In this document: positions 8,083 through 43,644 of the stretch, in pieces
How positions within the stretch are numbered: position 1 is the stretch's first letter
Layout: each line of letters starts with the position of its first letter
DNA from: an uncultured delta proteobacterium
Lineage (GTDB): Bacteria; Myxococcota_A; Polyangia; Fen-1088
Reading direction: 5' to 3'
NCBI GenBank assembly: GCA_963782545.1
Contig: CAWAKD010000006.1
Span: 71,309-135,308, forward strand
Length of the DNA: 64,000 nucleotides
The notes under the pieces: model-generated
Told to the model about the DNA's origin: nothing
Seen by the model: only the letters and a program-made list of their open reading frames with translations
Databases searched by the model: none
Translations under genes and position numbers: made by a program

Positions 8083-8397
8083 CAGATTCGCGTGGGGAGC
8101 CGGCCGGTTGTCGTGCTGAGATGGCCAGCCGGCGCAGGCGTGGCGGGTCGTCGAGTCGAACGCCTTGAAAGGGCCGCCCTTTGAGGGTTCCCATATCGGT
8201 CGCGTCGGGTATAGTGGCGAGCACCGCGCCACCCAGTCCAGCCAGGCTCTCTCCAGGTGGCGTTCGACATAGATGCTCAACCTTTCAACCATCTTCCCGC
8301 GAGGCGGCGTCCTCGTTCTTGATGCGCATCTCACCCCGGCGGTGAGGCTGCCGTTCCATGGGTTGGCTGACCATCTTGGAGCAGGAACGAATCGTCG

Positions 8398-9030
8398 GTG
8401 GCGATGCATCCAGCAGAGCTATCGCTGAGGGAAGAGAAGCGCGCCCTTCGTCGCGCCATGGCCGAGCAGAGAGACGCGCTGCCGCCCTCGCAACGAGAGG
8501 CGATGACCGGGCGAGCAGTGGAACGATTCCTCGATCTGCCCGAAACCCGCTCGGCCAGGACGGTGGCGGGGTTCGTGTCAACGCGCTCCGAAATCGATAC
8601 CGAACCGCTCCTCGGCCAGCTTCGGCGGCGAGGAGCCGCCGTCGTGCTTCCGCGGGTGAGCACCGGGCTCATCCCACCGCGCCTGCGCTTTCACCGGGCG
8701 GATTGGCGTTCCGAGCTGGTTTTTGGAATCTTCGGATTGCTCGAACCTGGACCGGATTGTCCCGAGGTGGCTGCTCACGACATCGACGTCTTCATGGTGC
8801 CCGGACTGGCGTTCGACAAGCGCGGCGCGCGTGTCGGATACGGAGGGGGCTACTACGACGAATTGGCGGCCTACGTGCGAGCCCATCCCGACGCCACCAA
8901 TGCGCGTTTCATCGGCTACTCTTTCGACTTTCAGGTGGTGGAGGCCTGTCCCTCCGGAGAGTGGGACGTGCCGCTCGACACCATCGTCACCGACGAACGC
9001 GTTGTTCGCTGCCAAGAATCGAGCCACTGA
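8398..9030 (+). CDS. 5-formyltetrahydrofolate cyclo-ligase
   Basis: LRRAMAEQRDALPP...VAGFVSTRSEIDTEPLL...VPGLAFDKRGARVGYGGGYYD is the MTHFS fold. Confidence 0.85.
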   Translation: MAMHPAELSLREEKRALRRAMAEQRDALPPSQREAMTGRAVERFLDLPETRSARTVAGFVSTRSEIDTEPLLGQLRRRGAAVVLPRVSTGLIPPRLRFHRADWRSELVFGIFGLLEPGPDCPEVAAHDIDVFMVPGLAFDKRGARVGYGGGYYDELAAYVRAHPDATNARFIGYSFDFQVVEACPSGEWDVPLDTIVTDERVVRCQESSH

Positions 9031-9039
9031 GGAAGAAAC

Positions 9040-10599: not shown

Positions 10600-10645
10600 C
10601 GATCTCTTTTTTTGACGAACGCCATCTCCGGTCCAAGATCCGTCC

Positions 10646-11392
10646 ATGAACCGTCGCACTGCTCTTCTTGGCGTGGTTGCACTTGCGGGCTGTGGCAGCC
10701 AACCGGGTTCCTTGACCCCGGCCGAATACTGCAACCAGTACGCGCAGGACGTGTGCGCGGCAGTTGCGGCCGCGTGTCTCGTGCCGGAGGCCAGTTGTTC
10801 GACCGGCCAACTCGTCGCGTGCAACGCCGACGCGCAGAGCAAAGCGGGCCTGGACTTCATCCCGTCGAATGCCCAGACCTGTCTGAACAAGGTGAAAGCC
10901 ACCTACGGAAAGTTGAACCAGGGCTTGGCGATCCCCGCGGCGGATTTCCAGGCCATGAACGAAGCTTGCAGCCAGGTCTACCGGGGCACGAAAGTGGCCA
11001 ATGCATCATGTGCCGGTGACGCCGAGTGCATCAGCGGCTTGATCTGCGACAAGGGCCATTGCGGGACGGCGGCTGTGGTCGCGCCGGGGGCTGGTTGCGC
11101 CAATATCGGAGAGACGTGCCCGCAGGGCTTCTACTGTAGCGACGCCAGCAGCATTTGGGTGTGCGCGAGCAAGGTCTCTCTGGGCATGGCGTGCGACGAT
11201 GCGCTCCCTTGCCTGGAGAACCTGCGCTGCGCCGCGGGTGTCTGCACCGCGCGACTTGGCATCAGCGAGGACTGCACCCTCGACCAAGATTGCAGCAGCG
11301 GATTCTGCGAACCCTACGCGCTCAAGTGCGCGCAAGAATTACGTTTCGCCAGCGGTAACGTCGATTGCACGGCCATGGGTGGCAGCGGCTGA
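10646..11392 (+). CDS. Cysteine-rich secreted lipoprotein
   Basis: Lipobox LAGCGS. About 30 Cys residues in repeated C-x-x-G-x-C spacing. Confidence 0.6.
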   Translation: MNRRTALLGVVALAGCGSQPGSLTPAEYCNQYAQDVCAAVAAACLVPEASCSTGQLVACNADAQSKAGLDFIPSNAQTCLNKVKATYGKLNQGLAIPAADFQAMNEACSQVYRGTKVANASCAGDAECISGLICDKGHCGTAAVVAPGAGCANIGETCPQGFYCSDASSIWVCASKVSLGMACDDALPCLENLRCAAGVCTARLGISEDCTLDQDCSSGFCEPYALKCAQELRFASGNVDCTAMGGSG

Positions 11393-11394
11393 TC

Positions 11395-11619
11395 TCATTT
11401 CCCGCATTCGCAGTCGCTGACCAGCAGGATCTCCGAGCGTAGGGTGGCCGGAGAGAGTCGCGTCGTCATGCAGATGCAACGCTCGGCTTCGCTCTCGATG
11501 GAGGAGGCGAAGTCCGACAGGTCATACCTCGATGGAGGGGGCGCGTTGGGGGGGTGGTGCAAGACTTGCGGCACGGTCAAGCGCAGCATCTCAGCCAGGA
11601 CCAAGGTCGTGAGCATCAT
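11395..11619 (-). CDS. Small hypothetical protein (74 aa) with a Cys-containing C-terminus
   Basis: GGAGGG RBS 6 nt upstream of ATGATG. Downstream of, and co-oriented with, pfkA. The sequence ends ...CICMTT...DCECGK. Confidence 0.4.
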   Translation of the reverse strand: MMLTTLVLAEMLRLTVPQVLHHPPNAPPPSRYDLSDFASSIESEAERCICMTTRLSPATLRSEILLVSDCECGK

Positions 11620-11706
11620 GGTCGTCCCTCCGTCGTGAAAGCAAAGAGAATGTTACTCTCCTTGCGCGCGTTCGGCGCAAGTCCTCGATTCGGGCGGGCA
11701 GCTCGC

Positions 11707-12798
11707 CTAGTCGCCGAAGCAGGTGCCCACGGCGCGCGCGGTGCGCACCAGCGGATCGTCGGGCGCGACCGTGCGCTGTTTGCCGGCGACGCTGCAGATG
11801 GGGATCTCGGCCAGACGGCCGTCTTGTTGCACGACCAGTTGGCCGTGCGCGCCCGCCATCAAGATCTCGAGTGCATGGCAACCGAACTGGGTGGCCAGGA
11901 CGCGATCCGCGGGCGTGGGTGAACCGCCGCGCTGAATGTGGCCGAGAACGGTGGCGCGCGCGTCGAGCTTGGTCGACTCCTCGATGTCGGCGACCAACTT
12001 GTTGGCGATGCCGCCCAGCCGGATGGGATCGGGGCTGGTTTCCACGCGACGCTGGATCACGACCTCGCCACCCTTCGGCTTCGCGCCCTCGGATACGCAG
12101 ATGATGGAAAATCGCTTGCCGCTCTTGCTGCGCCGGCGAAGCACGTCGGCGACGATTTCTAGGTCGTAGGGGATTTCGGGTATCAGGATCACGTCGGCGC
12201 CCGAGGCCACGCCGGTGTGCAGGGCCAGCCAGCCGGCATTGCGGCCCATCACTTCCACCACCATCACGCGGTGGTGGCTCATGGCCGTGGTGTGGATCTT
12301 GTCGAAGCACTCGGTGGCGGTGTCCACGGCGGTGTCGAAGCCGAAGGTGCGTTCGCAGCCCATGAGGTCGTTGTCGATGGTCTTGGGCACGCCGATGCAA
12401 TTGATGCCACTGTCGATCAGGTTCGCGGCCCCGGTCATGGTGCCGTCGCCGCCGATGCAGATCAGGGCGTCGAGCTCGCTGGCGCGCACGTGATCGATCA
12501 CGCGGTCGGTGACGTCGACCCACTCGGTCTTGCCGTGGCGCTCGATGGCGAAACGCTGCGGATTGGCCTGGTTGCTGGTGCCGAGGATGGTCCCGCCCAG
12601 GGTGAGGATGTTCGAAACGTCGTTCCACTGGAGCTGGCGCATGCGGTTCTGGATGAGGCCGAGGAAGCCGTCCTCGACCCCGACGACTTCCAGCTTGTGC
12701 TCGTGGATGGCGGCCTTGGTCACCGCCCGGATCACGGCGTTCAGGCCAGGGCAATCGCCGCCGCCCGTCAGGACACCGATGCGTTTGATGTTTCCCAT
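11707..12798 (-). CDS. pfkA: 6-phosphofructokinase (ATP/PPi-PFK family)
   Basis: GGDCPGLNAVIRAV...IGGDGT...GVPKTIDNDL...MGR are PFK signatures. Confidence 0.9.
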   Translation of the reverse strand: MGNIKRIGVLTGGGDCPGLNAVIRAVTKAAIHEHKLEVVGVEDGFLGLIQNRMRQLQWNDVSNILTLGGTILGTSNQANPQRFAIERHGKTEWVDVTDRVIDHVRASELDALICIGGDGTMTGAANLIDSGINCIGVPKTIDNDLMGCERTFGFDTAVDTATECFDKIHTTAMSHHRVMVVEVMGRNAGWLALHTGVASGADVILIPEIPYDLEIVADVLRRRSKSGKRFSIICVSEGAKPKGGEVVIQRRVETSPDPIRLGGIANKLVADIEESTKLDARATVLGHIQRGGSPTPADRVLATQFGCHALEILMAGAHGQLVVQQDGRLAEIPICSVAGKQRTVAPDDPLVRTARAVGTCFGD

Positions 12799-12860
12799 GG
12801 GGCGCGATGCTAGCGCCTACTCTCACCTGCCGTCTAGCAAAGGCGGGATCCCAGGTGAGG

Positions 12861-15723: not shown

Positions 15724-18700
15724 CTAAGGGGAATATTGCGTCAGAGCCCAAGCCATGTGGTTTGCAATGAAGTCTTCGTCGTCGAAATCGGTCTGGTCGA
15801 GGTTGTAGATGCCGTCTGCATTCGGATAGAAGGTGGTCCAGGGGAGGTTTTCCTTGCAAAGAAGCCCCTCGCCTGGGAGTTCCCCATCGGCTTCATTGAT
15901 CTCCGCCGCCCCCCTGATCTTGCCGTCGAAGGTGACCAAGGAGGTTCCACCTATCGGATTATTGTAGACGTTGCCAAAGTAGGTGGGCGTGACAAAAGCG
16001 AGTGCATGGGTGGGACGAGAGCCGGTGCCGTTCCACGGCGCGTTGCCACGCGTGAACGTAATGAACTGAGCCGTCCCCACAACCCCGTTGCCCTTGAACG
16101 CCAGATAGAAGCGCCCTTCAGTGCCTTCCGGAAGGAAGGCCAGACTCACACTCCCTGGAACACTTACCCTCACCTGGGGGACAGGCGGGGCTGGCGGCGG
16201 AGGCGAAGGTGGAGTCGGAGTAGCAAGAATTCTGTCGAAACCGGGTAAGTCCGCCCAGATACCAGGATCGAGCTTCGACCAAGTCGAGGTGTAGATCTGT
16301 TGTCCAGCTATCGGGTTAGGGCCGGTACGCTCCAGCCGCGCGATTTCCATGATTGGAAGAGCTCCGGAGGTAGGATCCGACAAAAGGGAGGGGATGACCG
16401 CGAAGATGCTGGTCTGGCCAGGGGGATCGGTGGACAGGCGTCCCTTCGTCACGCCGATGCCGATATCCACTCCAGTCACCGCGATCTTGTCGCCGGTGGA
16501 CCAGTACTCATCGGCCCCAAAGACGACAACGCTACCGGATGTCAGATCGTACTCCCATCGCTTGAGGTAGTAATTGCCGTCGGGCGATAGGCCTGGCGCG
16601 AATATCAGCACTCTGTTACTCAGGTCGTCCTTTATCGCTATTGGTGATGCACTGACCGAGGCGCCGAATAGGGGCCAAAGACCTTGGAAGGCATTCGGGT
16701 CGATTTCCGGCAACCCGCCCGCCGTCGTCCACTTGGTCTTCAACAGGTAGAGCTGCCCGGTGCCGTCCGCATAAACGACGACGTCGCCCGCCGCTGTCGG
16801 ACTGCGAGCCCCGTCGGGAGCAGGCACCATGCCAATTTGAGCCTCTTTGGTGTTGAAGGTCGCACACTTCTCGTGCCCCGGGTTCGCGCATTGACTCAGG
16901 TCAACGACTCCCACATACATTTGGCCATTGGGCACTAGTGGGTTCTGAGGGCCTGGAGGATTGGTTACGCAGGCTTCCTGGTCTCGCATGGGGCCAACCA
17001 CCACCAGCCCCTGATCCATGACAGCAACCGCCCCATGCAGGGCCCGCACGAACCACTTGTTGGCGCGAACGTTGTAGGGGGCAAGATTGCAGTCCTTGGC
17101 GCCTTCGTAGTTCAGAACCGCTTGGACCGTTGTGCCCTGTGGAGCGATGTCCCCGTCCATGTTCCAGTCAACCGAGCCGTTCGGCTTGACCTCGCGGTCG
17201 AAGTAGGAGGAGGACTGAAGATAGTCGGCCAGTTGGCTCCCGACGTTGGCCACCCCTATGCCGGCGTATTCGTCCAATCGCGTCGGGTTGAGAACGAGAT
17301 TCTTGTAGGTGCCTGGGGAGTAAGGCCCGAGCACGGCCGAGGGATAGCCGCCTAGCTCCATGGCACCTTGATATCCATAGTTCATCTGGCTCAGATACTG
17401 GGGTTTGCAGTTCGCCTTGCCTGACTCCTCTTGTCCACTGTCTGGGATTCCGAAGAAGTGACCGGTTTCGTGGGCAAAGGTCAGGGCATTGCCACCTTCG
17501 GTAATTCCACTGCACGCGCCCGTATTCTGGCCAGCACCCCCGTTAAACAAGCGAATGTGATAGAAAGTGTTAGCTCGTGAGGGGGAGAAGCCATCACAGT
17601 AGCCCCCTGGGACCGTCAGCAGTTCCGCTCCACCCCAGCTTCCAGAAACCGTAGGATCCGTGGATGACGTGTTGCCCGTGTCGATGTGAACGTTGATGTG
17701 GAGCTTGGTACCCTTCCCCATCACCCGATGAATTGCGTCGGCCGCCTGCGGGGTCATCTGGTACCCCTGCTCCCAGTCTGCCTCCACGAAGAGGTCTCGC
17801 TGCAGCGGATTCGCGCCATAGTAGTGGAATTTGAGCAGGTTCTTTCTCGTGGTCTCGTGTGCTGGGTCGTCAGCCCCACCTACCACCTCCAAAAGGTCGG
17901 GGAGTCCGTCGCCGTCCACGTCATCATCGTCACAGTCAGGTTTGCCGTCTCCGTCCGTGTCCCTGCCGGGGTCGTTTGGATCGCAGGTTCCCACCAGCAC
18001 TTCCATGGCGTCGCCCATCCCATCGCCATCGCGGTCTGGTCCGGTGTGGCCGCCTTCAGCGTCCCACACCAGAGTTGTGCCGGCGTTGGTCGGGTCGGGC
18101 CCCGCAACACCGTCGACTAACTTGCCGGAGCGAACCGCTGCGCGGGCAACGAGGATAGAACAGTTGTTCGCGGGACAATCTTCGAACAGATGGAGCCAGG
18201 ACATCAGGGCCACGCCGTTGTCGTCGTCGTAGGCTATGGGCACGTCGCCGGCGCCCAGCACCATCAGGATGGTGTCATCGGTGCCACCCTGCTCCTCGAG
18301 GGTCGATATGTGGGTCGTGGTTGGCAGTCCCGTTGCAACGGCTGTTATGCTGGATACGCCACTGGGTGCAGGGGAGTATGAGCCGGATTGCAGAGCGACG
18401 GAGGTGTCCCCTCCCACGGTGGGGTGAAGCTCCGTCAGGCCATCGAAAATACCACTCGTGCCTGGTACACCCCTTACCACTAGGACAATGGGCCTATCCG
18501 CCGCCTGCGCGGGGAAGATCACTTGCGTTGGGGTATCGGCAACGTATCTCGCCTCTTGCAATAGGTCTTCATTCGGATACCCGAATGCGTCGACAATCAG
18601 GTCGGGATCGGGATCGGTCGTACCGGCCTTCCAGAACGTGTATGTCGCGGCGGTGTTCGCCGGCACCATGAGGAAATACTGGCTCACGGTGTCGACCCCA

Positions 18701-18798
18701 GAAAAGGGCACTATTCCGGCCGGCTGGGCGTGAGACGTTCCGGCTAAGAAGAGCAGCGAAATGGCAGAGGCGATCGAGATTATCTTGAGTGTGCGCAT
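15724..18798 (-). CDS. Secreted zinc metalloprotease (HExxHxxGxxD, snapalysin-type motif) with thrombospondin type-3-like Ca-binding repeats
   Basis: Signal peptide MRTLKIISIASAISLLFLAGTSHA. The motif HETGHFFGIPD is present. An acidic DTDGDGKPDCDDDDVDGDGLPD repeat block follows. 1024 aa. Confidence 0.8.
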   Translation of the reverse strand: MRTLKIISIASAISLLFLAGTSHAQPAGIVPFSGVDTVSQYFLMVPANTAATYTFWKAGTTDPDPDLIVDAFGYPNEDLLQEARYVADTPTQVIFPAQAADRPIVLVVRGVPGTSGIFDGLTELHPTVGGDTSVALQSGSYSPAPSGVSSITAVATGLPTTTHISTLEEQGGTDDTILMVLGAGDVPIAYDDDNGVALMSWLHLFEDCPANNCSILVARAAVRSGKLVDGVAGPDPTNAGTTLVWDAEGGHTGPDRDGDGMGDAMEVLVGTCDPNDPGRDTDGDGKPDCDDDDVDGDGLPDLLEVVGGADDPAHETTRKNLLKFHYYGANPLQRDLFVEADWEQGYQMTPQAADAIHRVMGKGTKLHINVHIDTGNTSSTDPTVSGSWGGAELLTVPGGYCDGFSPSRANTFYHIRLFNGGAGQNTGACSGITEGGNALTFAHETGHFFGIPDSGQEESGKANCKPQYLSQMNYGYQGAMELGGYPSAVLGPYSPGTYKNLVLNPTRLDEYAGIGVANVGSQLADYLQSSSYFDREVKPNGSVDWNMDGDIAPQGTTVQAVLNYEGAKDCNLAPYNVRANKWFVRALHGAVAVMDQGLVVVGPMRDQEACVTNPPGPQNPLVPNGQMYVGVVDLSQCANPGHEKCATFNTKEAQIGMVPAPDGARSPTAAGDVVVYADGTGQLYLLKTKWTTAGGLPEIDPNAFQGLWPLFGASVSASPIAIKDDLSNRVLIFAPGLSPDGNYYLKRWEYDLTSGSVVVFGADEYWSTGDKIAVTGVDIGIGVTKGRLSTDPPGQTSIFAVIPSLLSDPTSGALPIMEIARLERTGPNPIAGQQIYTSTWSKLDPGIWADLPGFDRILATPTPPSPPPPAPPVPQVRVSVPGSVSLAFLPEGTEGRFYLAFKGNGVVGTAQFITFTRGNAPWNGTGSRPTHALAFVTPTYFGNVYNNPIGGTSLVTFDGKIRGAAEINEADGELPGEGLLCKENLPWTTFYPNADGIYNLDQTDFDDEDFIANHMAWALTQYSP

Positions 18799-18812: not shown

Positions 18813-20822
18813 CTAGCGAGCGACGAAAACGATGCTGGGATCGGCGATGGGAGTGAAGACTCCGTTGACCTCGGGGTTGGTCCTCGGCATCTGGCTGGCG
18901 CTACTGCCGCCGGGCGGTGGTTGTGGAGGCGGCTGGGAACTCGATGGTTGTGCCGGGGACATGGTCACGACGGACTCCTGGGCGATGGGCGTGACGACGG
19001 CGCTCTGGTCTTCAGCGCACCCGACGCTAAGCTGAACCCTGGTAGGCCCGGCCTGGGAGTCCCCCTGTTCGGTGTGCAGACGCAGCTTCGTGGCAAGCAG
19101 CTTCTGGCCCGCGACGAGCCCGCCTTCACACGACTCGAAGACGTAGAAGCCGGCGTATGCGCGTTCCAGCGGGGTGCTGGGATGTTCCTGCGAGGATCCC
19201 CCCCGGTACGTACAAGCCGTGAAGCAGGTCGGGCAGGCGCCGGCTTGCTGGATCGAGAGAATCGTGGTGCCGCTGCCTGACAGACCGTCGATGACGTTCA
19301 TGAGCTTGGGCACGGTGAACAGCGCGGGCGCCGAGAACTCTTGCTCGCCGTCCGTACTCGCGACGGGGCTGTAGGTCTTGAGTGCCACCAGGTTGACACC
19401 GGCGCAGGTCGCGCAGCTTCCGCCCACGCAACTGCCCTTCTGACAGAGCTGGCCTTCGGGGCATCCGGTCGAGTAGTAGCAGTCGGTTCCGTCCGGCACC
19501 GGATCGTTCGGGCACAAACCGGTTTGCGCGTTGCAGATCCCAGCCGCGTGGCATTGATCGGAGGCGGTGCAGGTGATGGGGTTCTGGCCGACGCAGATCC
19601 CGTCTTGGCACCGGTCGTCGTCGGTGCAGGCACTGGCGTCATCGCAGGGCGTGTCGTCGGAGAGGACGGTGTAGTTACCGCAAGCACCGGTCGACGGGTT
19701 GCATGTGCCGGGGCCGTGACAACCGTCGGGCGCAGGACACGCAACCGCAGGCCCTGGCACGCAGACGCCGCCTTGGCACCGGTTGTTCTGAGTGCAAGGG
19801 TTTGCGTAGGTACACGGAGTCGTGTCGGGCAGGCCGGTGCACGAGGCGGATGGCGTGCTGCCTGGACAGGCCAGACACTGATAGACTTGGTCCGCGATGG
19901 TCTTGGGTGCCACGCCATATGGGAATCTATTGACCCCGCACGTGCCATTGGGATCGTCGGTCGGACCGGTCCCATTCTCGAGGTAGCAGTCAAGGAACAC
20001 CGTGCAGTGTGTTCGGTCCCACTGCGTTTCTCGCGTGCACCACTGGCCGCACATGGTGTTGCGCCAGTCCTGCAAACAGGCGCCCCCGCCCCCACCGCCG
20101 TCACTGGTTGAGGTGCTGGTCGCGGTGGTCGTCACGGTGACAGTGGTCGTCGCCGTCGGGGTCGTCGTCTGCGTCAGGGTTTGCGTCTGCGTCTGGGTGA
20201 TCGTATCGGTGTGGGCGCCGGTCGCGGTCTTCGTATAGGTCCAGGTTATTCTTCCGCTCCAACCGACCCCAGTACCCGTGGCGAGCATGGTCTTGCTCAA
20301 GGCCCCCGCATAGTACGCCGCTACGGTCTTCGTGGTCGTGGCCGTCGCAAAGCTCGAGAACTGCATCGTTAAGGTCGTCGTGCCCGAGCCCGTATACGTC
20401 GCACCGCTGTCTGCGTATGTGCCGGTCGCGGTGCCGCTTCCGATGAAGGTCGTAACCGCCGTATCAGCACGGGTCAGGGTGGCGGTCCAGACATATGGCT
20501 TGGCTCCAACGTAGTCGTTCCTGAGGGTCACGGTGCCCACGCCCGTGCCCGTAACATTGAGGTAGTTCGCAGTCGCCGTCTTGGTGGTGACGTTGCCCGT
20601 TGCCGTCTGTGTATGCGTGGAGGTCGACGATTCGGTGTAGGTCGATGATTGCGTGTAGGTCGAGGTTTGCGTCTGGGTGCCGGTGACGGTGATGACCGAG
20701 TCCTTGATACTTGCGCGCAGCCCCCGATGCGAGCCGCCTCCTTCGTCCGGCGGAGGCGTCGAGCCGCACCCCACTGCCAAGGTCTGAGCTACAACCACGA
20801 ACCACAGAAGGTCTGTTTTCAT
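18813..20822 (-). CDS. Lipoprotein with a Thr-rich low-complexity region and Myxococcus-type cysteine-rich repeats
   Basis: Lipobox LAVGCGS. An approximately 230-aa T/Q/S-rich segment. Then tandem C-x5-6-C...C-x-x-G-x-C repeats (PCTYANPCTQNNRCQGGVCV...). Confidence 0.75.
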   Translation of the reverse strand: MKTDLLWFVVVAQTLAVGCGSTPPPDEGGGSHRGLRASIKDSVITVTGTQTQTSTYTQSSTYTESSTSTHTQTATGNVTTKTATANYLNVTGTGVGTVTLRNDYVGAKPYVWTATLTRADTAVTTFIGSGTATGTYADSGATYTGSGTTTLTMQFSSFATATTTKTVAAYYAGALSKTMLATGTGVGWSGRITWTYTKTATGAHTDTITQTQTQTLTQTTTPTATTTVTVTTTATSTSTSDGGGGGGACLQDWRNTMCGQWCTRETQWDRTHCTVFLDCYLENGTGPTDDPNGTCGVNRFPYGVAPKTIADQVYQCLACPGSTPSASCTGLPDTTPCTYANPCTQNNRCQGGVCVPGPAVACPAPDGCHGPGTCNPSTGACGNYTVLSDDTPCDDASACTDDDRCQDGICVGQNPITCTASDQCHAAGICNAQTGLCPNDPVPDGTDCYYSTGCPEGQLCQKGSCVGGSCATCAGVNLVALKTYSPVASTDGEQEFSAPALFTVPKLMNVIDGLSGSGTTILSIQQAGACPTCFTACTYRGGSSQEHPSTPLERAYAGFYVFESCEGGLVAGQKLLATKLRLHTEQGDSQAGPTRVQLSVGCAEDQSAVVTPIAQESVVTMSPAQPSSSQPPPQPPPGGSSASQMPRTNPEVNGVFTPIADPSIVFVAR

Positions 20823-25708: not shown

Positions 25709-25845
25709 AGCGGGGCCGGAAGGTCCTTGCGTGGACGGTGGCGGAGCGCCTCGACCCAACGAGGACGTGCCAGGTGTCGCTGGCCGCTAGCAAGCATCTC
25801 GTAATTGCGGGCCGGCCGTTGCTCTTTGCCGGGGAGACCGACGCG

Positions 25846-34291: not shown

Positions 34292-34398
34292 GGCCGGAGC
34301 GGAACTGCCGGTAATCCGTGCGGCTTCGCCGCTTCCTGTCGCTTTGAGGTTGTCGGCGGCTATCCGGGGTGCCAGAAGATGACGACGTTCACTTCTCC

Positions 34399-35235
34399 AT
34401 GACCATCTGGGTTTTCACGATCGCGGTCTTCGGCGGTTCGGTCACCGCCGGGCTCTTGGGTTCCTTGACGGGGCTCGGGGGTGGCGTGGTGCTCATCCCG
34501 CTGCTCCACCTGCTCTTCAAAGTTGACATGCGATATGCCATGGGGGCCTCTCTGGTCGCGGTGATCGCGACCTCGTCGGGGGCGGCGGCTGCCTACGTCA
34601 AGGAGGGGTTCTCGAACATCCGCATCGGGATGTTCCTCGAGGTGGCCACCACCCTGGGGGCGCTGGGCGGCGCGCTCCTGGCCACCCGGATCCCGACCCA
34701 CGTGCTGGCCTTCATCCTGGGGGTGGTTCTGCTCGGCTCTGGCTACCTGTCGCGCAAGCCGCGCTCCCACGCGGAGCGCGAGGTGCCGCCCGACGCGCTC
34801 GCCACGCGTCTCGGCATGAACGGCACTTTTCCCGGGTCGGAAGGGGTTCGCGCCTACAACGTCACCCACGTGCCCACGGGATTCGCTCTCATGCTGGGAG
34901 CCGGCGCCCTCTCCGGCCTACTCGGCATCGGCTCGGGGGCGATGAAGGTCCTGGCCATGGATCGGGCCATGAAGATCCCGTTCAAGGTTTCCACCACCAC
35001 CAGCAACTTCATGATTGGCGTCACCGCGGCGGCGAGCGCCGGCGTCTACCTTGACCGTGGCTACATCGACCCCGGTCTGGCCATGCCCGTGGTGCTGGGC
35101 GTGCTGGTCGGTTCGGTGGCGGGGACGCGCGTGCTGACCCATGGTCAGACCAGGTGGCTGCGCCTGCTCTTCAGCATGGTCATCGCGGCCCTCGGGATCG
35201 AGATGATCCTCAAGGGCTTGCAGGGGATCCCCTGA
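34399..35235 (+). CDS. TauE/SafE family sulfite/anion exporter
   Basis: Duplicated 4-TM halves with G-rich motifs (LTGLGGGVVLIPLL ; LLGIGSGAMKV). Confidence 0.8.
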   Translation: MTIWVFTIAVFGGSVTAGLLGSLTGLGGGVVLIPLLHLLFKVDMRYAMGASLVAVIATSSGAAAAYVKEGFSNIRIGMFLEVATTLGALGGALLATRIPTHVLAFILGVVLLGSGYLSRKPRSHAEREVPPDALATRLGMNGTFPGSEGVRAYNVTHVPTGFALMLGAGALSGLLGIGSGAMKVLAMDRAMKIPFKVSTTTSNFMIGVTAAASAGVYLDRGYIDPGLAMPVVLGVLVGSVAGTRVLTHGQTRWLRLLFSMVIAALGIEMILKGLQGIP

Positions 35236-35236
35236 C

Positions 35237-35614
35237 ATGAAGACCTCGTCCGCGACCCTCGACAAGCGCGTGGAGAACACCATCGGCAACCTGCTCCGGC
35301 TCGGCGTCCTCCTGTCCGCCGGATTGATCGTTGTGGGGGCCGCGCTCTATTTGTGGCGGCACGGCCACTCGCCCGCCGCCTACCACGTGTTCCGCGACGA
35401 TCTGCCCGAGCTGCGCGGGCTCGGGGGGATCTTGCGCTCGGCCTGGGCCCTCAATCCCCGCGGAGTCATTCAATTCGGGCTCCTCGTCCTCATCGCCACG
35501 CCGGTGGCGCGGGTCGGATTCTCGATCTGGGGATTCGCGGCGATGCGGGATCGGACCTACGTGCTCATCGCCAGCCTGGTGCTCTGCACGCTCCTCTACA
35601 GTCTCTTCGGGTAG
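35237..35614 (+). CDS. DUF1634 family small membrane protein
   Basis: Its start overlaps the tauE stop. Three TM segments. Commonly paired with TauE. Confidence 0.6.
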   Translation: MKTSSATLDKRVENTIGNLLRLGVLLSAGLIVVGAALYLWRHGHSPAAYHVFRDDLPELRGLGGILRSAWALNPRGVIQFGLLVLIATPVARVGFSIWGFAAMRDRTYVLIASLVLCTLLYSLFG

Positions 35615-35701
35615 CTGGCGGAAGCCAACGTGCGCCACGTGGCTGCTGCAGCCTGACTCTGCCGGGGAAGAGAGACCGGACAACCGTGGTACTATCGGGC
35701 C

Positions 35702-36124
35702 GTGACGATCGAGGAACTGACTTCACGGCTAGGCCGGGCGTTGCAGGCGCGGCCAGAGGTGCGTCTTGCGTTCCTGTTCGGGTCGTCAGTGTCAAGGGGG
35801 CTGGATTCTGCGAAGGATGTCGATGTCGCGAGCGCCTTTGCGGGTCCCCTTACTCTTCTCGAGCAAGGCACCATCGCGACCCAGCTCGAGCAGGTCGCGG
35901 AGCGCGAGATCGATCTCATCGACCTCGATGCGACCTCGACCTTGCTGCGCTGGGAGGTCGCACGCAGCGGCGTCGTCCTCTTCGCTAGAGACCACGCCGA
36001 GCTGGTGGAATTCCGCGCGCGTGTGCCTCTCGAGTATTTCGATCTCGAACCCTTCCTCGTTCGCGAAGCCGCCGGCCTACGTCTGGCTTTGGAGGAAACG
36101 AGATGGTCCAGCTCGAAGTCGTGA
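35702..36124 (+). CDS. MNT-type nucleotidyltransferase antitoxin (HepT/MNT type VII TA pair 1)
   Basis: GS..RG....SDVD motif (FLFGSSVSRGLDSAKDVDVAS). Overlaps the downstream DUF86 gene by 22 nt. Confidence 0.75.
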   Translation: MTIEELTSRLGRALQARPEVRLAFLFGSSVSRGLDSAKDVDVASAFAGPLTLLEQGTIATQLEQVAEREIDLIDLDATSTLLRWEVARSGVVLFARDHAELVEFRARVPLEYFDLEPFLVREAAGLRLALEETRWSSSKS

Positions 36125-36537
36125 GACAGAAAATCGCGCGCATGCGCGACACCGGGCAGTGGCTGAAGGCGTGCCTTCCCGCAGGGTCTGCCGACATGGT
36201 TTCCGACCGGAATGTCCGGGATCTCGTCTCGTTCCGCGCCCACCTGCTGGTCCAGGAGGCCATCGATATTTGTTCTCACCTCATCGCCGACCAGGGTTGG
36301 GGCCCCGTGCCGAGCCTGCGTGATCACTTCACGTTTCTGGCAGACAAGGGCGTGTTGCCGACCGGGTTGGCCGGCCAACTTGCAGCAGCCGTCAAGGTGC
36401 GCAACCTGGTCGGCCACGGCTACGTCGCGGTGGATCCACACAAGATGCACGAGGCGGCGGTGGAGATCGTTACCCTGGTCGATCCGTTTTGCGCGACCGT
36501 TTTATCGTTTGCCGAGGGCCACGCCCGCCGAGGCTGA
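36103..36537 (+). CDS. HepT-like (DUF86, HEPN) RNase toxin (pair 1)
   Basis: C-terminal R-x4-HGY motif (VRNLVGHGYVAVDPHKM), the HEPN Rx4-6H. Confidence 0.75.
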   Translation: MVQLEVVRQKIARMRDTGQWLKACLPAGSADMVSDRNVRDLVSFRAHLLVQEAIDICSHLIADQGWGPVPSLRDHFTFLADKGVLPTGLAGQLAAAVKVRNLVGHGYVAVDPHKMHEAAVEIVTLVDPFCATVLSFAEGHARRG

Positions 36538-36842
36538 AGCCGATGGCGGGCTGGTGCCGCCACGAACCCAGGTGTGACCGCGCGCGCGGCTAGACCGCAA
36601 TCCTTACCCTTGGCTCTGGACCTTCCCGGCAAGGCGGTCTGGCGTAGCTTGGTCACCTTCGGGCGAGGAGGAATGGATGAACCCGCGCTACGTACGCACC
36701 ATGGTTGATCGTTTGCTGGCGGATCTGGAGAAGGATCCACGGCTCGGATCATAGCGCCTTCAAGCGCCATTTCTTCTGCCGCTCGGCCTCGCGCCCGGCC
36801 GCCATCTTGAAAGTCTCGACCTGGGTACTCGTCGACCACTGG

Positions 36843-37190
36843 CTATCCCCGGAACGTGAAGTACGCAGCACCGATCAGGCAGAGGCCGGCCCACAGGTAG
36901 TCGAGCTTGATCGGCTGGCGCATGTAGAAGATTGCGAATGGAACGAAGACCGTCAGCGTCACCACCTCTTGGAGAATCTTGAGTTGCGCCAAACTGAGCG
37001 CGGTGAAGCCGAGGCGGTTGGCGGGCACCTGCAGGCAATATTCGAACAGGGCGATCGACCAGCTTACCAGTGCGGCGACGTACCAGGGCTTGCCGCCCAA
37101 GGTCTTGAGGTGACCGTACCAGGCGAGGAGCATGAAAGTGTTCGACAGACAAAGTAGGCCGGTGGTCCGCAGGAGCACGGAGATGTTCAT
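36843..37190 (-). CDS. Small DMT-like (DUF486) membrane protein
   Basis: 115 aa, 4 TM. The upstream 230 aa of the ORF is read-through of a transposase remnant. Confidence 0.55.
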   Translation of the reverse strand: MNISVLLRTTGLLCLSNTFMLLAWYGHLKTLGGKPWYVAALVSWSIALFEYCLQVPANRLGFTALSLAQLKILQEVVTLTVFVPFAIFYMRQPIKLDYLWAGLCLIGAAYFTFRG

Positions 37191-37379
37191 GGGCTCTGGT
37201 CCTACCATGATGGACACGCAGGGGCCGCCCAGCCCGCCGCCCCCCGTTCCACGTAGCCTCGCCAAAACCCATCGGCGGCACCTCCCGCGCACCGCTGGGC
37301 CTTCCGTCGGTTCTGGACCTGGCGTTCTCGGCATCGTCAACCAGGCCGCCCTCCCACAAGTCGCGAGGTTCGTGACTTG

Positions 37380-38080
37380 ATCAAGCGAATGGCTGCCGCC
37401 AACCTGGGCTGTCGACGTAGAACACGAGCAGCCTTTCCAAAGCGGCGAAGGTGTCGAGCTGATGCAGGTAGAGCCATCCGCGCTTGAGCGAGCAGAGACC
37501 ACGCGCCAATCGTTGAGTTCGAGAAGCTGACCTCGACCTGGGCGAGCACGCGGCGTAGTTGTCCGAGGCCGAGGAGATCGTCGACCGCGCGGTTGACATT
37601 CTCCCACCCGAGTCGGCGACGACCGTGGCCGCATCGCTGCTCGTCGGAAGGTTCTTCGCTGCCTCCATGAGAACCTGGCAGGTGGTCTGTGGTTCTGAAG
37701 TTCCGCATGATCCAAGGCGAGGACCTCGGCGGAAACGACGGGGCGAGGCCCACGACGAATCCAACTGACGGCCGTCGAGCGTGGAACGCCTATGTGGTTG
37801 AACAGGTCCGGGTCGCGCTCCTCACAGACGAGGTCGCGCATTCGGTGGTCATAGGTGCGTCGCAAGGTGGCAGCAGGCATGGGTCATGGTCGTCACGGCT
37901 TGCCCATCAGGCAAGCATGGCTGGTGCCGATTGCTTCTGCGATTTCGCGGGTGTTGCAGCTGCATGCGCCCGAGTCCAGAATGTCTTGGTTCGCAGCTGG
38001 GCTAACAGCCAGGCTAACCGTCGTCCACCGCCATCGGAACTGCGCCTCGCCGACTGGGTTGGGCTGGTGTAGGATTTGAG
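37380..38080 (-). pseudogene. Degenerate transposase remnant (HTH fragments, multiple frameshifts)
   Basis: The minus strand has ...CNTREIAEAIGTSHACLMGKP* followed by MPAATLRRTYDHRMRDLVCEERD...GVPRSTAVSWIRRG, which are IS630/IS3-like N-terminal HTH segments. No intact catalytic domain. Confidence 0.3.
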
Positions 38081-38088
38081 TTGGTTCA

Positions 38089-38388
38089 ATGAGCCCGCAC
38101 CTGCACTCCGAGGGCGAGGAGATCGCCACCTTTTGTCGCCGCAACCACATCCGAAAGCTCGCATTTTTCGGATCGGTGCTGCGTGCCGATTTTCGTGACG
38201 ACAGCGACATCGACGTGCTCGTGGAGTTCGAACCGGGCCGTGTCCCGGGCTTCGCCTTCTTCGGTCTGGAGGACGAGCTTGGTCTCCTCCTGGGACACAA
38301 GGTCGACTTGCATACGCCCGCCTCTCTCAGCGTCCACTTCCGCGATCGGGTCCTTCGCGAAGCCGAGCCTGCCTATGTCGCAGCATGA
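38089..38388 (+). CDS. MNT-type nucleotidyltransferase antitoxin (pair 2)
   Basis: Contains FFGSVLRADFRDDSDIDVLVEF. The 3' end overlaps the next gene by 14 nt. Confidence 0.7.
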   Translation: MSPHLHSEGEEIATFCRRNHIRKLAFFGSVLRADFRDDSDIDVLVEFEPGRVPGFAFFGLEDELGLLLGHKVDLHTPASLSVHFRDRVLREAEPAYVAA

Positions 38389-38716
38389 TCCCCTCATCGA
38401 GCTCGCTCAGATGCGCGACCATGCGCAGGAGGCAATGGCCTTCTGGCGGGCAAGAGCCGGGCGGATCTGGAAGCCGACCGTGTTCTTGGCCTCGCCATCG
38501 TTCGCCTGCTCGAAATCCTCGGCGAGGCGGCCAGAAGAGTTCCAGGCGAGGTGCAACAATCGCACCCGGGCATTCCCTGGTCCTACATCATTGGGATGCG
38601 CAATCGTTTGATTCATGGGTACGACCGTGTCGATCTAGACATCGTGTGGTCCGTGGTCGTCGCAGACCTTCCACCCCTGGTGGCGCAACTCGCAGAAATC
38701 ACGGCCGGGCGTTGAG
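38375..38716 (+). pseudogene. HepT-like (DUF86) toxin, disrupted by a 1-nt deletion near 38443
   Basis: Frame 1 reads MSQHDPLIELAQMRDHAQEAMAF. Then frame -1 reads LAGKSRADLEADRVLGLAIVRLLEILGEAARRVPGEVQQSHPGIPWSYIIGMRNRLIHGYDRVDLDIVWSVV...*. The DUF86 family alignment is continuous only across the shift (gccttcTGG where gccttcCTGG is expected). Confidence 0.6.
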
Positions 38717-38766
38717 CGACGGCCTTTTCACCCCTGTCGCTCTACGAAAAGGGCGGGCGGGTCAAG

Positions 38767-38973
38767 GTGGAGCTGGCGCTGGTGCACTCATTGGCGGGAC
38801 TGGGTAAGGAAGTCGGTGATGCGAATCTGCCGAGATGCTGGTGTGCCGGAGGTGTCTGCATCAATCGATGCGCGGGCTTCACGGTTCTTTGGGTGTGGAG
38901 TCGAGTGGAGTCGCCGACCGCTGTAGCCGCCGCGCTGGGGCACTCGTCGCCCAGCACGACGCTTCAGAGCTAG
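38767..38973 (+). pseudogene. Tyrosine recombinase/integrase C-terminal fragment
   Basis: ...AGFTVLWVWSRVESPTAVAAALGHSSPSTTL resembles the R-H-T..LGHSS...Y catalytic tail. Only about 68 aa, truncated. About 150 bp from the tRNA-Ala 3' end. Confidence 0.4.
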
Positions 38974-39080
38974 GCGACCAGGGAATCGGCGGCGACTGGC
39001 CGCCAGAATCGAGTGACCGCGACGTTGCTTAGGGGAAGAGATCGAGGTCCGATCCGAAGGAATATCGTTCCGCAATCGTT

Positions 39081-39112
39081 CCGCAGAAAGAAAAGCGCCG
39101 CCTTGCGGCGGC
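39081..39112 (-). terminator. Intrinsic terminator downstream of tRNA-Ala
   Basis: Minus strand: GCCGCC-GCAA-GGCGGC hairpin, followed by GCTTTTCTTTCT. Confidence 0.4.
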
Positions 39113-39120
39113 AAATTCCT

Positions 39121-39193
39121 TAGTAATATTGTGGAGCTGAACAGGATCGAACTGTCGGCCTCCTGAATGCCATTCAGGCGCTCTCCCAGCTGA
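39121..39193 (-). tRNA. tRNA-Ala (anticodon GGC)
   Basis: Reverse complement: GGGGCTGTAGCTCAGCTGGGAGAGCGCCTGAATGGCATTCAGGAGGCCGACAGTTCGATCCTGTTCAGCTCCA. G3:U70 identity pair. Anticodon loop AT-GGC-AT. T-loop TTCGATC. 73 nt, CCA not encoded. Confidence 0.9.
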
Positions 39194-39370
39194 GCTACAG
39201 CCCCATCGCCCCTTGCGAGGCACGGAGTAACTACCAGCCACGTGGCCAGACGTCAATACCGGAGTCGCGGCGTCACGGCACGGCTTGACAGGGCGGGGCA
39301 GGGTGGCAGATTGTCTCCTCCCTTTTCGCGGCGATCTTGCGCCGCGAGGGACGCAACATCAGGAGAATCC

Positions 39371-40471: not shown

Positions 40472-40495
40472 CCACAGCGCCCCTCACCCTGTCCC

Positions 40496-41904
40496 TCATA
40501 GGTGCTAACCACTTTTTTGCTAGTGATCTCGCGAAGGTGTACGGGGAGGTATGGGGACGAAACTTCTGGAGTGCGAATGGCCGATGTTGGTCCGGGAGCT
40601 TCCTGCCGGGTGGAAGGAGAGCGCGTTCTTAACGGGCGCAATTGTCATGGAGGACGGGCCACTGGCCGACCCGGAGAAGCTGCTACGGTTGCTGTTGGGT
40701 AGGGCAGCATCTGACGGATCCCTACGCTCCGTGGTCGCGCACGCTCGGGCAACCGGGTTGTGCGACGTGAGCAACGTAGCCCTGCACAAGCGGGAGAAGC
40801 GATGTGCGGACTGGCTGGAATGGATCGCGGACGACATGCTGGCGGAAACCATGGCTGGGCTGCCGTCAAGTCCCTTGCGCATGCGTCTGGTAGACGCGAC
40901 TTGCGCGAGCCGGCCTGGCAGCACGATGGCCGATTTTCGCCTGCACGTGACTGTGGAGTTGCCTACCCGGCGATTCACCCGAGCGGAGTTGACCGACAAC
41001 CATGGCGGGGAGTCGTTCGAGCGAATGGCGGTTGAGCCAGGTGATCTCTTGGTGGGTGACCGCATCTATGGGACGGCGAATTCGATCGAGCACGTGACGG
41101 CGAGAGGTGGCTACGCCCTGGTGCGCATCAATGCTTCGTCGCTGCCAATGTGGAGTACCTCCGACGGGGCGCGGGTCGACCCACTGGTCGTGGCCAGAAG
41201 GCTCGCCCCTGGCGAGATGACGGAGATCCCCGTCGAGATCCGGCCGAAGTCTGGTCAGGCGATCGAGGGAAGATTTTGTATCTATGCCTTGCCCACCGAG
41301 CAGGCAGCCAAGGCCCAGAAGCGGACGCGCCGGACCAAGTTGAAGCGCGGCAAGCGACCGGGCAAGTGTTCCATCGAGAGCGCCAAGTACATCATGTTGT
41401 TTACGACCGTGCCCTGCAAGATGATGACGACCGCACAAGTGGTCGCGACCTATCGGCTGCGTTGGCAAGTCGAGCTTGCGTTCAAGACGCTCAAGACTGT
41501 GCTCAAGTTCGACGAGTTGCCCAATCGCCTGCCGGACACGGGCCGTACCTGGCTGCTCGCTAAGCTGATCTGCGCGCTTCTGCTGCAACGGTTGGCCGGC
41601 TGCCACGAGGCTATTCCCCCCTCGGACGTCGCAGCCGCTGCCTAGCCCATCATCCCGGCCAAGCCGGCTTTCTCCATTTCGCGCCATTGCGTTTCTGTCC
41701 TGTGCTCTGGCCGATGCCATTCTCGGTCGACTCACGCTGACGGCACGAGTTGCAGCCCTTGACCGCACATCTGAGTTTCGCGACGGCCGCCAGCAGTACC
41801 AAATCGACAAATTCGTCGTCCGACCTCGACACCGTCTTGCTCAACGCCTCGGCCTAGTCACGAAAGCTACCTCATGCAGGGCTCCGAGTGGTTAGCACCT
41901 ATGA
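40496..41904 (+). mobile_element. IS element copy A (1409 bp, DDE_Tnp_1 / IS4-like)
   Basis: 18-bp terminal IRs TCATAGGTGCTAACCACT (40496..40513 and 41887..41904). Flanked by a 9-bp direct repeat CCCTGTCCC (40487..40495 / 41905..41913). Confidence 0.8.
40551..41645 (+). CDS. IS4-like DDE transposase (364 aa)
   Basis: Y-(2)-R-(3)-E-(6)-K signature in YRLRWQVELAFKTLK. Identical to the copy at 42324..43418. Confidence 0.85.
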   Translation: MGTKLLECEWPMLVRELPAGWKESAFLTGAIVMEDGPLADPEKLLRLLLGRAASDGSLRSVVAHARATGLCDVSNVALHKREKRCADWLEWIADDMLAETMAGLPSSPLRMRLVDATCASRPGSTMADFRLHVTVELPTRRFTRAELTDNHGGESFERMAVEPGDLLVGDRIYGTANSIEHVTARGGYALVRINASSLPMWSTSDGARVDPLVVARRLAPGEMTEIPVEIRPKSGQAIEGRFCIYALPTEQAAKAQKRTRRTKLKRGKRPGKCSIESAKYIMLFTTVPCKMMTTAQVVATYRLRWQVELAFKTLKTVLKFDELPNRLPDTGRTWLLAKLICALLLQRLAGCHEAIPPSDVAAAA

Positions 41905-42064
41905 CCCTGTCCCTTACCCTGTCCCTCTCCCCGGCTGTCGCCGGGGCGAGGGGACCTGGCTGCTGGATCTCTGCGCAGGCAAGTGATCTCTCGACTCGTC
42001 CGAACCGCCCCCTCGCCCCGCGTAGCGCAGCGAAGCGGGGAGAGGGTTGGGGTCAGGGTTGGGG
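41905..42064. repeat. 160-bp remnant of an imperfect palindromic intergenic element between the two IS copies
   Basis: Arms ccctgtcccttaccctgtccctctcccc ... ggggagagggttggggtcagggttgggg are inverse-complementary with a few mismatches. The overlapping 67-aa ORFs on both strands are palindrome artefacts. Confidence 0.5.
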
Positions 42065-43473
42065 TCATAGGTGCTAACCACTCGGAGCCCTGCATGAGGT
42101 AGCTTTCGTGACTAGGCCGAGGCGTTGAGCAAGACGGTGTCGAGGTCGGACGACGAATTTGTCGATCTGGTACTGCTGGCGGCCGTCGCGAAACTCAGAT
42201 GTGCGGTCAAGGGCTGCAACTCGTGCCGTCAGCGTGAGTCGACCGAGAATGGCATCGGCCAGAGCACAGGACAGAAACGCAATGGCGCGAAATGGAGAAA
42301 GCCGGCTTGGCCGGGATGATGGGCTAGGCAGCGGCTGCGACGTCCGAGGGGGGAATAGCCTCGTGGCAGCCGGCCAACCGTTGCAGCAGAAGCGCGCAGA
42401 TCAGCTTAGCGAGCAGCCAGGTACGGCCCGTGTCCGGCAGGCGATTGGGCAACTCGTCGAACTTGAGCACAGTCTTGAGCGTCTTGAACGCAAGCTCGAC
42501 TTGCCAACGCAGCCGATAGGTCGCGACCACTTGTGCGGTCGTCATCATCTTGCAGGGCACGGTCGTAAACAACATGATGTACTTGGCGCTCTCGATGGAA
42601 CACTTGCCCGGTCGCTTGCCGCGCTTCAACTTGGTCCGGCGCGTCCGCTTCTGGGCCTTGGCTGCCTGCTCGGTGGGCAAGGCATAGATACAAAATCTTC
42701 CCTCGATCGCCTGACCAGACTTCGGCCGGATCTCGACGGGGATCTCCGTCATCTCGCCAGGGGCGAGCCTTCTGGCCACGACCAGTGGGTCGACCCGCGC
42801 CCCGTCGGAGGTACTCCACATTGGCAGCGACGAAGCATTGATGCGCACCAGGGCGTAGCCACCTCTCGCCGTCACGTGCTCGATCGAATTCGCCGTCCCA
42901 TAGATGCGGTCACCCACCAAGAGATCACCTGGCTCAACCGCCATTCGCTCGAACGACTCCCCGCCATGGTTGTCGGTCAACTCCGCTCGGGTGAATCGCC
43001 GGGTAGGCAACTCCACAGTCACGTGCAGGCGAAAATCGGCCATCGTGCTGCCAGGCCGGCTCGCGCAAGTCGCGTCTACCAGACGCATGCGCAAGGGACT
43101 TGACGGCAGCCCAGCCATGGTTTCCGCCAGCATGTCGTCCGCGATCCATTCCAGCCAGTCCGCACATCGCTTCTCCCGCTTGTGCAGGGCTACGTTGCTC
43201 ACGTCGCACAACCCGGTTGCCCGAGCGTGCGCGACCACGGAGCGTAGGGATCCGTCAGATGCTGCCCTACCCAACAGCAACCGTAGCAGCTTCTCCGGGT
43301 CGGCCAGTGGCCCGTCCTCCATGACAATTGCGCCCGTTAAGAACGCGCTCTCCTTCCACCCGGCAGGAAGCTCCCGGACCAACATCGGCCATTCGCACTC
43401 CAGAAGTTTCGTCCCCATACCTCCCCGTACACCTTCGCGAGATCACTAGCAAAAAAGTGGTTAGCACCTATGA
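42065..43473 (-). mobile_element. IS element copy B (1409 bp, inverted relative to copy A)
   Basis: The same 18-bp IRs (42065..42082 and 43456..43473). Own 9-bp direct repeat GGGTTGGGG (42056..42064 / 43474..43482). Confidence 0.8.
42324..43418 (-). CDS. IS4-like DDE transposase (364 aa), second copy
   Basis: Translation identical to 40551..41645. Confidence 0.85.
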   Translation of the reverse strand: MGTKLLECEWPMLVRELPAGWKESAFLTGAIVMEDGPLADPEKLLRLLLGRAASDGSLRSVVAHARATGLCDVSNVALHKREKRCADWLEWIADDMLAETMAGLPSSPLRMRLVDATCASRPGSTMADFRLHVTVELPTRRFTRAELTDNHGGESFERMAVEPGDLLVGDRIYGTANSIEHVTARGGYALVRINASSLPMWSTSDGARVDPLVVARRLAPGEMTEIPVEIRPKSGQAIEGRFCIYALPTEQAAKAQKRTRRTKLKRGKRPGKCSIESAKYIMLFTTVPCKMMTTAQVVATYRLRWQVELAFKTLKTVLKFDELPNRLPDTGRTWLLAKLICALLLQRLAGCHEAIPPSDVAAAA

Positions 43474-43644
43474 GGGTTGGGGTGAGGGGCGATCCTGTGG
43501 ACCTCTCCAAGCCGCCCTCTTACCGCTGGAAGCCGCCGGTGTAGGTCGCACACTTGGCTTTCTGGGTAAGGACGAGCCCCGATGGGGAGAGGCTTGAAGT
43601 GGCCAGGCGTCGCTCTCAGCGCGCTCTGTGGTTAAACTGCGCTG

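Follow-up and report, generated by a model that had tools for sequence, protein, structure and literature searches.

Two type VII toxin–antitoxin gene pairs and insertion-sequence debris at a variable tRNA-Ala(GGC) locus of an uncultured member of the Polyangia

In the type VII toxin–antitoxin (TA) system HepT/MntA of S. oneidensis, the toxin HepT cleaves mRNA and the antitoxin MntA neutralises it by oligo-AMPylating the tyrosine of the RX4HXY motif (PMC7641770). Here we describe two gene pairs of this kind, hereafter pair 1 (MNT1 and HepT1) and pair 2 (MNT2 and HepT2), which lie together with the relic of an insertion sequence (IS) next to a tRNA-Ala(GGC) gene in DNA of an uncultured member of the Polyangia (contig CAWAKD010000006.1). 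The whole stretch that was analyzed comprises 64,000 nt and is called the window; all coordinates are window positions. Since the tRNA-Ala gene is located on the minus strand, positions 35700–39130, which harbor both pairs, correspond to its 3′ side (Table 1).

Both pairs resemble the type VII systems in that an MNT gene precedes and overlaps a HepT gene, in the small size of the proteins (99–144 aa), and in the presence of a GSX10DXD motif in both MNT proteins and an RX4HXY motif in both HepT proteins. Pair 1 moreover scores above the NCBIfam cut-offs and can be aligned with the S. oneidensis proteins of known structure. Pair 2, in contrast, belongs to another subfamily, whose nearest members are T. 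thermophilus 1WOT and a cyanobacterial plasmid HepT; its NCBIfam equivalog scores stay under the cut-offs, and its toxin gene has become a pseudogene. The surroundings can be compared to tRNA-associated islands with tyrosine integrases: The genes are positioned directly 3′ of a tRNA, related lineages lose synteny exactly at the tRNA 3′ end, an integrase relic of a sister lineage reads into the tRNA, and TA and IS genes are enriched. The locus differs from such islands in that the window contains no demonstrable integrase, tRNA 3′-end repeat, or distal boundary, and in that the variable segment spans ~26 kb, in which accessory genes of a housekeeping-like kind predominate. Finally, the IS relic is similar to IS3-like rve (DDE) insertion sequences of the InsO type, as its relatives possess PF00665/PF13683 domains and terminal inverted repeats and IS3 is its best NCBIfam match. 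However, this match falls under the IS3 and IS481 cut-offs, and the window copy is non-autonomous, having been deleted internally, frameshifted, and deprived of its 3′ end.

From the analysis presented below we consider it probable that these 3.5 kb are the tRNA-proximal end of a ~26-kb segment that is mosaic, specific to the lineage, and bounded by a PFK gene and the tRNA-Ala 3′ end, and that selfish elements have gathered and decayed in this proximal part: Pair 1 is intact, pair 2 has lost its toxin, the IS has decayed, and insertion by a tyrosine integrase would be the likeliest source of the proximal DNA.

Table 1. Features on the 3′ side of tRNA-Ala(GGC), in window coordinates.
Feature	Position	Strand	Basis
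MNT1, MntA-type antitoxin, 140 aa	35702–36124	plus	PF18765, NF047752, motif
HepT1, HepT-type HEPN RNase toxin (predicted), 144 aa, intact	36103–36537	plus	PF01934, NF047751, motif
25-aa open reading frame (ORF; 'orphan stub')	36675–36752	plus	no Pfam match
DMT_6 (DUF486) small membrane protein, 115 aa, intact	36843–37190	minus	PF04342, 1.3e-43, profile positions 2–104/104
rve-domain (IS3-like) IS relic	37405–38014	minus	blastn against L162–L166; homologues with PF00665/PF13683
MNT2, antitoxin, 99 aa, intact	38089–38388	plus	PF01909, PDC-S09, 1WOT
HepT2, toxin pseudogene	38375–38715	plus	PF01934 on repaired peptide; frameshift at ~38443
68-aa ORF ending in ALGHSSPSTTLQS and a stop	38767–38973	plus	proposed integrase C-terminal relic; without statistical support
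Terminator-like site for tRNA-Ala (GC-rich hairpin and T-run directly after the tRNA)	39096–39113	minus	consensus scan; sequence pattern only
tRNA-Ala(GGC)	39131–39204	minus	ARAGORN and Rfam; breakpoint by blastn

The two HepT/MntA-type gene pairs

Both genes of pair 1 are recognized by general as well as by system-specific profiles. MNT1 matches PF18765 (9e-15) and HepT1 matches PF01934 (4e-15) in Pfam profile searches, and the two proteins reach 72.9 bits on the NCBIfam MntA equivalog NF047752 and 67.5 bits on the HepT equivalog NF047751, respectively, each with a cut-off of 60. In the PDB, S. oneidensis MntA (5YEP_A) aligns with MNT1 at 8e-6 and S. oneidensis HepT (6M6U_B/5YEP_B) with HepT1 at 2.5e-5. 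Regular-expression searches locate the GSX10DXD motif as GSSVSRGLDSAKDVD at residue 27 of MNT1 and the RX4HXY motif as RNLVGHGY at residue 100 of HepT1, where it is aligned with the motif of 6M6U_B. The genes are encoded on the same strand, with the antitoxin gene upstream and an overlap of 22 nt. By these measures both genes of the type VII HepT/MntA module are intact in pair 1, and it is predicted to work by analogy to the S. oneidensis system: HepT1 would cleave mRNA, and MntA1 (the product of MNT1) would AMPylate the motif tyrosine. The locus also displays strain microdiversity, as the Logan contig L001 (run ERR11571143) differs from the window by a one-codon in-frame deletion in MNT1 and one single-nucleotide polymorphism (SNP; 35858–35860 and 36031).

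In pair 2, MNT2 matches PF01909 (2.8e-11; 44 bits against a Pfam cut-off of 21), the PADLOC candidate family PDC-S09 (5e-29), and the minimal nucleotidyltransferase 1WOT in the PDB (1.3e-11), and it carries the GSX10DXD motif as GSVLRADFRDDSDID (regular expression); on the NCBIfam MntA equivalog it attains 38.6 bits, which is under the cut-off of 60. HepT2 overlaps MNT2 by 14 nt and is interrupted by a 1-nt deletion (TTCCTG to TTCTG), after which the homology continues in another frame up to the stop at 38715. This downstream, C-terminal frame alone matches PF01934 with 58 bits (7e-16). Addition of one C after 38443 restores a full-length HepT2 of 113 aa, which matches PF01934 with 88 bits (5.4e-25; profile positions 1–120/120) and whose residues 1–108 align unbroken with an intact HepT from a Microcystis plasmid (3e-27). 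The RX4HXY motif (RNRLIHGY) remains in the downstream frame only, in which no start codon precedes 38551; consequently, the product of this frame can be at most a 54-aa fragment. The Logan contig L167, again from run ERR11571143, is 100% identical to window 37580–38786 and includes the lesion. Programmed frameshifting was considered and rejected upon reading of the sequence, as there is no slippery heptamer at CTTCTGG and a 1-nt deletion suffices. In pair 2 the toxin thus appears to be inactivated, leaving an orphan MNT2 that is probably still active.

Pairwise BLASTP reveals motif-level similarity only between pair 1 and pair 2 (E = 0.085 and 0.008). For this reason, we regard them as independent modules of unrelated subfamilies and rejected a tandem duplication of one TA pair. 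Paralogous copies of the 3.5-kb patch do not occur elsewhere in the window. A preliminary description of this DNA had proposed both pairs with their overlaps, the frameshift, and a toxin-first decay with retention of the antitoxin. The profile searches support the MNT and HepT assignments in either case: Both genes of pair 1 (35702–36537) lie above the NCBIfam type VII cut-offs, pair 2 is confirmed by Pfam, the one-base repair, and L167, and it is indeed only the toxin that is frameshifted. With the exception of an integrase call discussed below, the gene identifications of that description proved largely accurate.

Comparison with related lineages and extent of the variable segment

tRNA-Ala(GGC) is the only tRNA gene found by ARAGORN and Rfam, and its position confirms the proposed arrangement of a gene patch on its 3′ side. 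Related contigs were reached via close ilvC homologues (92–96% amino acid identity) and form three sets, L172–L175, L176–L180, and L181, all of which keep the order tRNA-Ala(GGC)–ilvC–Suv3-like helicase. In blastn comparisons of L172–L181, homology with the window starts at 39127–39131, i.e. at the last bases of the tRNA, extends through ilvC to 40471, skips 40478–43491, and resumes at ~43610. Left of the tRNA, nothing is common to the window and these contigs, and the content differs by lineage: L172–L175 contain a VTT/DedA gene followed by MFS_1, L176–L180 encode two secreted proteins, and L181 has unrelated non-coding DNA. L177 and L178 add a 214-aa ORF that reads into the tRNA and corresponds to a truncated Phage_integrase domain (PF00589; 41.8 bits, 1.3e-10, profile positions 57–168/172), which would constitute direct evidence of integrase activity at tRNA-Ala in at least one lineage. 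In an ilvC-anchored search of GTDB genomes for an empty site, the contig of the closest genome (L002) begins within the tRNA, which is absent from this site in more distant relatives. Because homology in the related lineages starts at the tRNA 3′ end while the other side is different in each, this end represents a recurrent breakpoint in the clade.

The sequence of the tRNA gene itself also varies at this point. In the window it ends in ...CCACAA / ...CTCCACAA (39127–39135) and therefore does not encode CCA; CCA is encoded in the L172 (8963) and L177 (9769) groups, and L181 (211) has CCG. The lineages diverge in sequence precisely from the last bases of tRNA-Ala onward.

The only shared left flank is that of L172, which has 5-FTHF cyclo-ligase, RNase Y, and PFK in common with window 8205–12812. 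The distance from PFK to the tRNA amounts to 26.3 kb in the window (12812–39131) versus 3 kb in L172, where the interval holds only a 109-aa ORF, MFS_1, and VTT/DedA. Most of the window segment is taken up by ordinary genes of metabolism and transport. Between 12.8 and 34.3 kb the window encodes EamA, FMN reductases, TetR, a fatty-acid desaturase, NDH-2, GH5, GH16, MFS_2, and AraC and no mobility genes; two large proteins without Pfam domains (15724–18798 and 18813–20822) are also part of the segment. A TauE–DUF1634 block lies at 34344–35611, which is the only block common to the four relatives L168–L171 (82–87% amino acid and ~82% nucleotide identity) and whose flanks differ on both sides in each of them; the pair resembles a two-gene cassette that changes location. 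An MNT/HepT pair follows TauE–DUF1634 in 0 of about 80 JGI metagenome loci and in 0 of the 4 long relatives, and a direct junction of this block with the tRNA, as in an empty site, was found in none of the relatives. With TauE as the anchor, the pair itself is all that is conserved in the metagenome loci and the relatives. The GC content at third codon positions (GC3) is 0.66–0.78 in the four TA genes versus 0.88–0.91 in TauE, DUF1634, and ilvC, with DMT_6 at 0.84.

These comparisons agree with the earlier view that the DNA is accessory rather than ancestral, as the homology with four related lineages goes no further than the tRNA 3′ end (for L002, the contig breaks in the tRNA). The idea of a decayed, tRNA-integrated islet of 3.5 kb holds in part: The site is variable, tRNA-linked, and littered with IS debris, but no attachment (att) site or integrase of its own is demonstrable in the window, and the lineage-specific DNA is mosaic and measures ~26 kb. 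The delimitation of the islet to 35700–39200 had to be abandoned, since this DNA reaches back to PFK at 12812.

The IS relic, the putative integrase fragment, and neighboring features

A search with a query from the frames at 37380–38080 yielded 75 proteins, among them longer relatives with rve domains (PF00665/PF13683); the nearest relatives are 82–94% identical to the 62-aa transposase N-terminus of the relic. The anatomy of the relic follows from blastn comparisons with the full copies in L162–L166. Its left inverted repeat is kept at ~37981–38014 (matched to the ends of the L162 copy), ~75–105 nt from the MNT2 start. The transposase gene is represented by its 5′ portion at 37892–37695, with the transposase N-terminus encoded at 37880–37695, and exactly at 37695 an internal deletion has removed ~630 bp. 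The adjoining 37695–37405 represents the frameshifted rve C-terminal part, and at 37405 the homology stops, so that the 3′ end and the right inverted repeat are absent and most of the catalytic domain is gone. The best NCBIfam family, IS3, gives 57 bits against a cut-off of 160. The transposase remnant that had been noted at ~37380–38080 is therefore real and its frames are broken, but it is not an N-terminal stub only, as part of the rve C-terminal region is kept.

Additional observations concern this IS family and its surroundings. Window positions 37327 and 37580 mark the ends of Logan contigs and bracket the 3′ half of the relic. In another organism (L163/L164, 4000–8549), a copy of the same IS family has HNH_5, TIR_2, Metallophos, and MNT genes as neighbors, a setting of defense-type appearance. 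A related rve transposase has left ~90 nt (...GRKVLAWTVAERLDPTRTCQ...) on the plus strand at 25714–25800, where this relic separates the NDH-2 gene from that of the GH5 cellulase (2e-5 in tblastn with P0015). Moreover, the transposase N-terminus is joined in frame to DMT_6 via Arg/Pro-rich out-of-frame sequence in a 345-aa ORF (36843–37880, minus strand); we rejected this fusion as a gene, as it is probably a GC-rich read-through artifact, which could mislead gene callers.

The 68-aa ORF downstream of pair 2 had been interpreted as the C-terminal fragment of a tyrosine integrase, and its end ALGHSSPSTTLQS does resemble, by eye only, the LGHSS..T..Y terminus of tyrosine recombinases. Neither the ORF nor its neighboring frames or spliced peptides produced a match in Pfam, PHROGs, or the PDB (E up to 10) or in plasmids (E up to 0.1). 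The interpretation as an integrase is hence a motif-level impression, whose other support is positional: The PF00589 ORF of L177/L178 occupies the same place in the same orientation. With Pfam, PHROGs, PDB, plasmids, and the protein library considered below all lacking an integrase match, this part of the preliminary description was not substantiated.

The proposed DUF486 membrane protein is confirmed by the full-length PF04342 match of DMT_6, which is also called as a 115-aa gene in contig L001. The 25-aa ORF has no Pfam match and reaches no better than E=3 in tblastn against plasmids. On the other side of the tRNA, the stretch 40478–43491 in the spacer between ilvC and the helicase gene harbors two inverted IS4-family copies (40496–41904 and 42065–43473), which are 99% identical, possess 18-nt terminal inverted repeats TCATAGGTGCTAACCACT and their own 9-bp duplications CCCTGTCCC and GGGTTGGGG, and occupy the two arms of a C-rich/G-rich repeat. 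As this spacer comprises only 110–270 nt in the relatives, both copies are recent insertions.

Origin and significance of the locus

The reading that we favor implies that selfish elements would have collected and decayed at the tRNA-proximal end of the mosaic segment. The toxin of pair 2 would have been lost by the 1-nt deletion while the orphan MNT2 stayed, and an rve-type IS may have landed between DMT_6 and pair 2, afterwards losing ~630 bp internally as well as its 3′ end. Because the tRNA-Ala 3′ end acts as a recurrent recombination or integration point in the clade, a tyrosine-integrase insertion would be the likeliest origin of the tRNA-proximal DNA, and by analogy to L177 such an origin is plausible. 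Several results weigh against this reading. A full HMMER pass of the 68-aa ORF, as called, against a library of 1.84 billion proteins returned multi-stretch repeat-protein matches only and no integrase, and a direct comparison of its region with the L177 integrase uncovered no similarity. A repeat finder, a 3-mismatch pattern search, blastn at word size 7, and blastn-short all failed to detect a second, directly repeated copy of the tRNA 3′ end anywhere in the window: The 21-nt tRNA 3′ end has no second match with up to 3 mismatches, and blastn-short found none longer than 11 nt. Gene order is fluid in general, as the varying neighbors of TauE–DUF1634 illustrate, and the breakpoint at the tRNA could stem from general rearrangement and not from site-specific integration. 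The shift in GC3 is only a modest one that stays inside the window range of 0.69–0.91, the TA activity is a prediction from motifs and profiles, and the HepT2 frameshift could be a shared error if both assemblies come from the same reads.

The last point leads to the possibility that the frameshift is an assembly or sequencing artifact and that pair 2 is intact in vivo. A single base is missing from a short CC run, and the source looks like a metagenome assembly, which is prone to indel errors; however, the independently built Logan contig of ERR11571143 is 100% identical across the site, and the same dataset resolves real variants elsewhere (the 3-nt indel and the SNP in L001), differences from the window which establish that the Logan assembly was not copied from the source assembly. 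We therefore consider an artifact unlikely. Quite unlikely, in our estimate, is the model of the preliminary description, namely a single integrative element of ~3.5 kb (a prophage or island remnant) that inserted at tRNA-Ala and decayed until the TA modules were its only intact cargo. It would fit the break of synteny at the tRNA 3′ end, the integrase relic at the same position in the sister lineage, and the clustering of TA and IS genes in the proximal 3.5 kb, and the ...LGHSSPSTTLQS end of the 38767–38973 ORF, taken as read, looks like an integrase C-terminus. Yet there is neither an att repeat at 35.6 kb or elsewhere in the window nor a conserved flank at 35.6 kb; instead, lineage-specific DNA runs on to 12.8 kb and the TauE–DUF1634 neighbors vary in all relatives. 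Furthermore, the two TA pairs are unrelated, the GC3 of DMT_6 (0.84) is core-like, and the integrase fragment is unsupported. As no boundary, att site, or common history of the components can be demonstrated, a single 3.5-kb element is the less likely origin.

Alternatively, the MNT/HepT modules, possibly together with DMT_6, might form a functional anti-phage defense islet that is kept by selection for abortive infection and not as a set of addiction modules. HEPN RNases are common abortive-infection effectors, MNT2 matches PDC-S09, and the same IS family occurs amid HNH, TIR, and MNT genes in L163/L164. Against this stand the facts that the toxin, i.e. the effector, of pair 2 is a pseudogene, that PDC-S09 is a candidate family, that HepT1, HepT2, and DMT_6 have no PADLOC match, and that the flanking 10 kb contain no other defense genes, which makes a defense islet very unlikely. 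The defense-island signature that had been attributed to the adjacent HepT/MNT pairs accordingly retains the PDC-S09 match of MNT2, but this candidate family is its only basis. It would be more speculative still, and we regard it as a long shot, that the intact orphan MNT2 is retained as a 'free' adenylyltransferase with a role in anti-addiction or immunity, neutralizing HepT toxins that are non-cognate or newly arriving, with the tRNA-Ala(GGC) 3′ end serving as a clade-wide hotspot of module exchange. The favored reading thus remains that of selfish elements decaying at the end of a mosaic, lineage-specific segment.

All identified components stem from well-known families, and a variable, tRNA-linked locus with TA modules and the debris of an IS is a commonplace arrangement and not a new kind of system. 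The significance of the locus lies mainly in annotation: Two type VII TA modules, of which one looks active and the other has a dead toxin, an IS relic, and a variable tRNA-Ala locus can be labeled correctly in an uncultured Polyangia genome. Beyond that, the locus may illustrate how a HepT/MntA pair decays toxin first, and it may be of use as a marker of strain-level variation in the clade.

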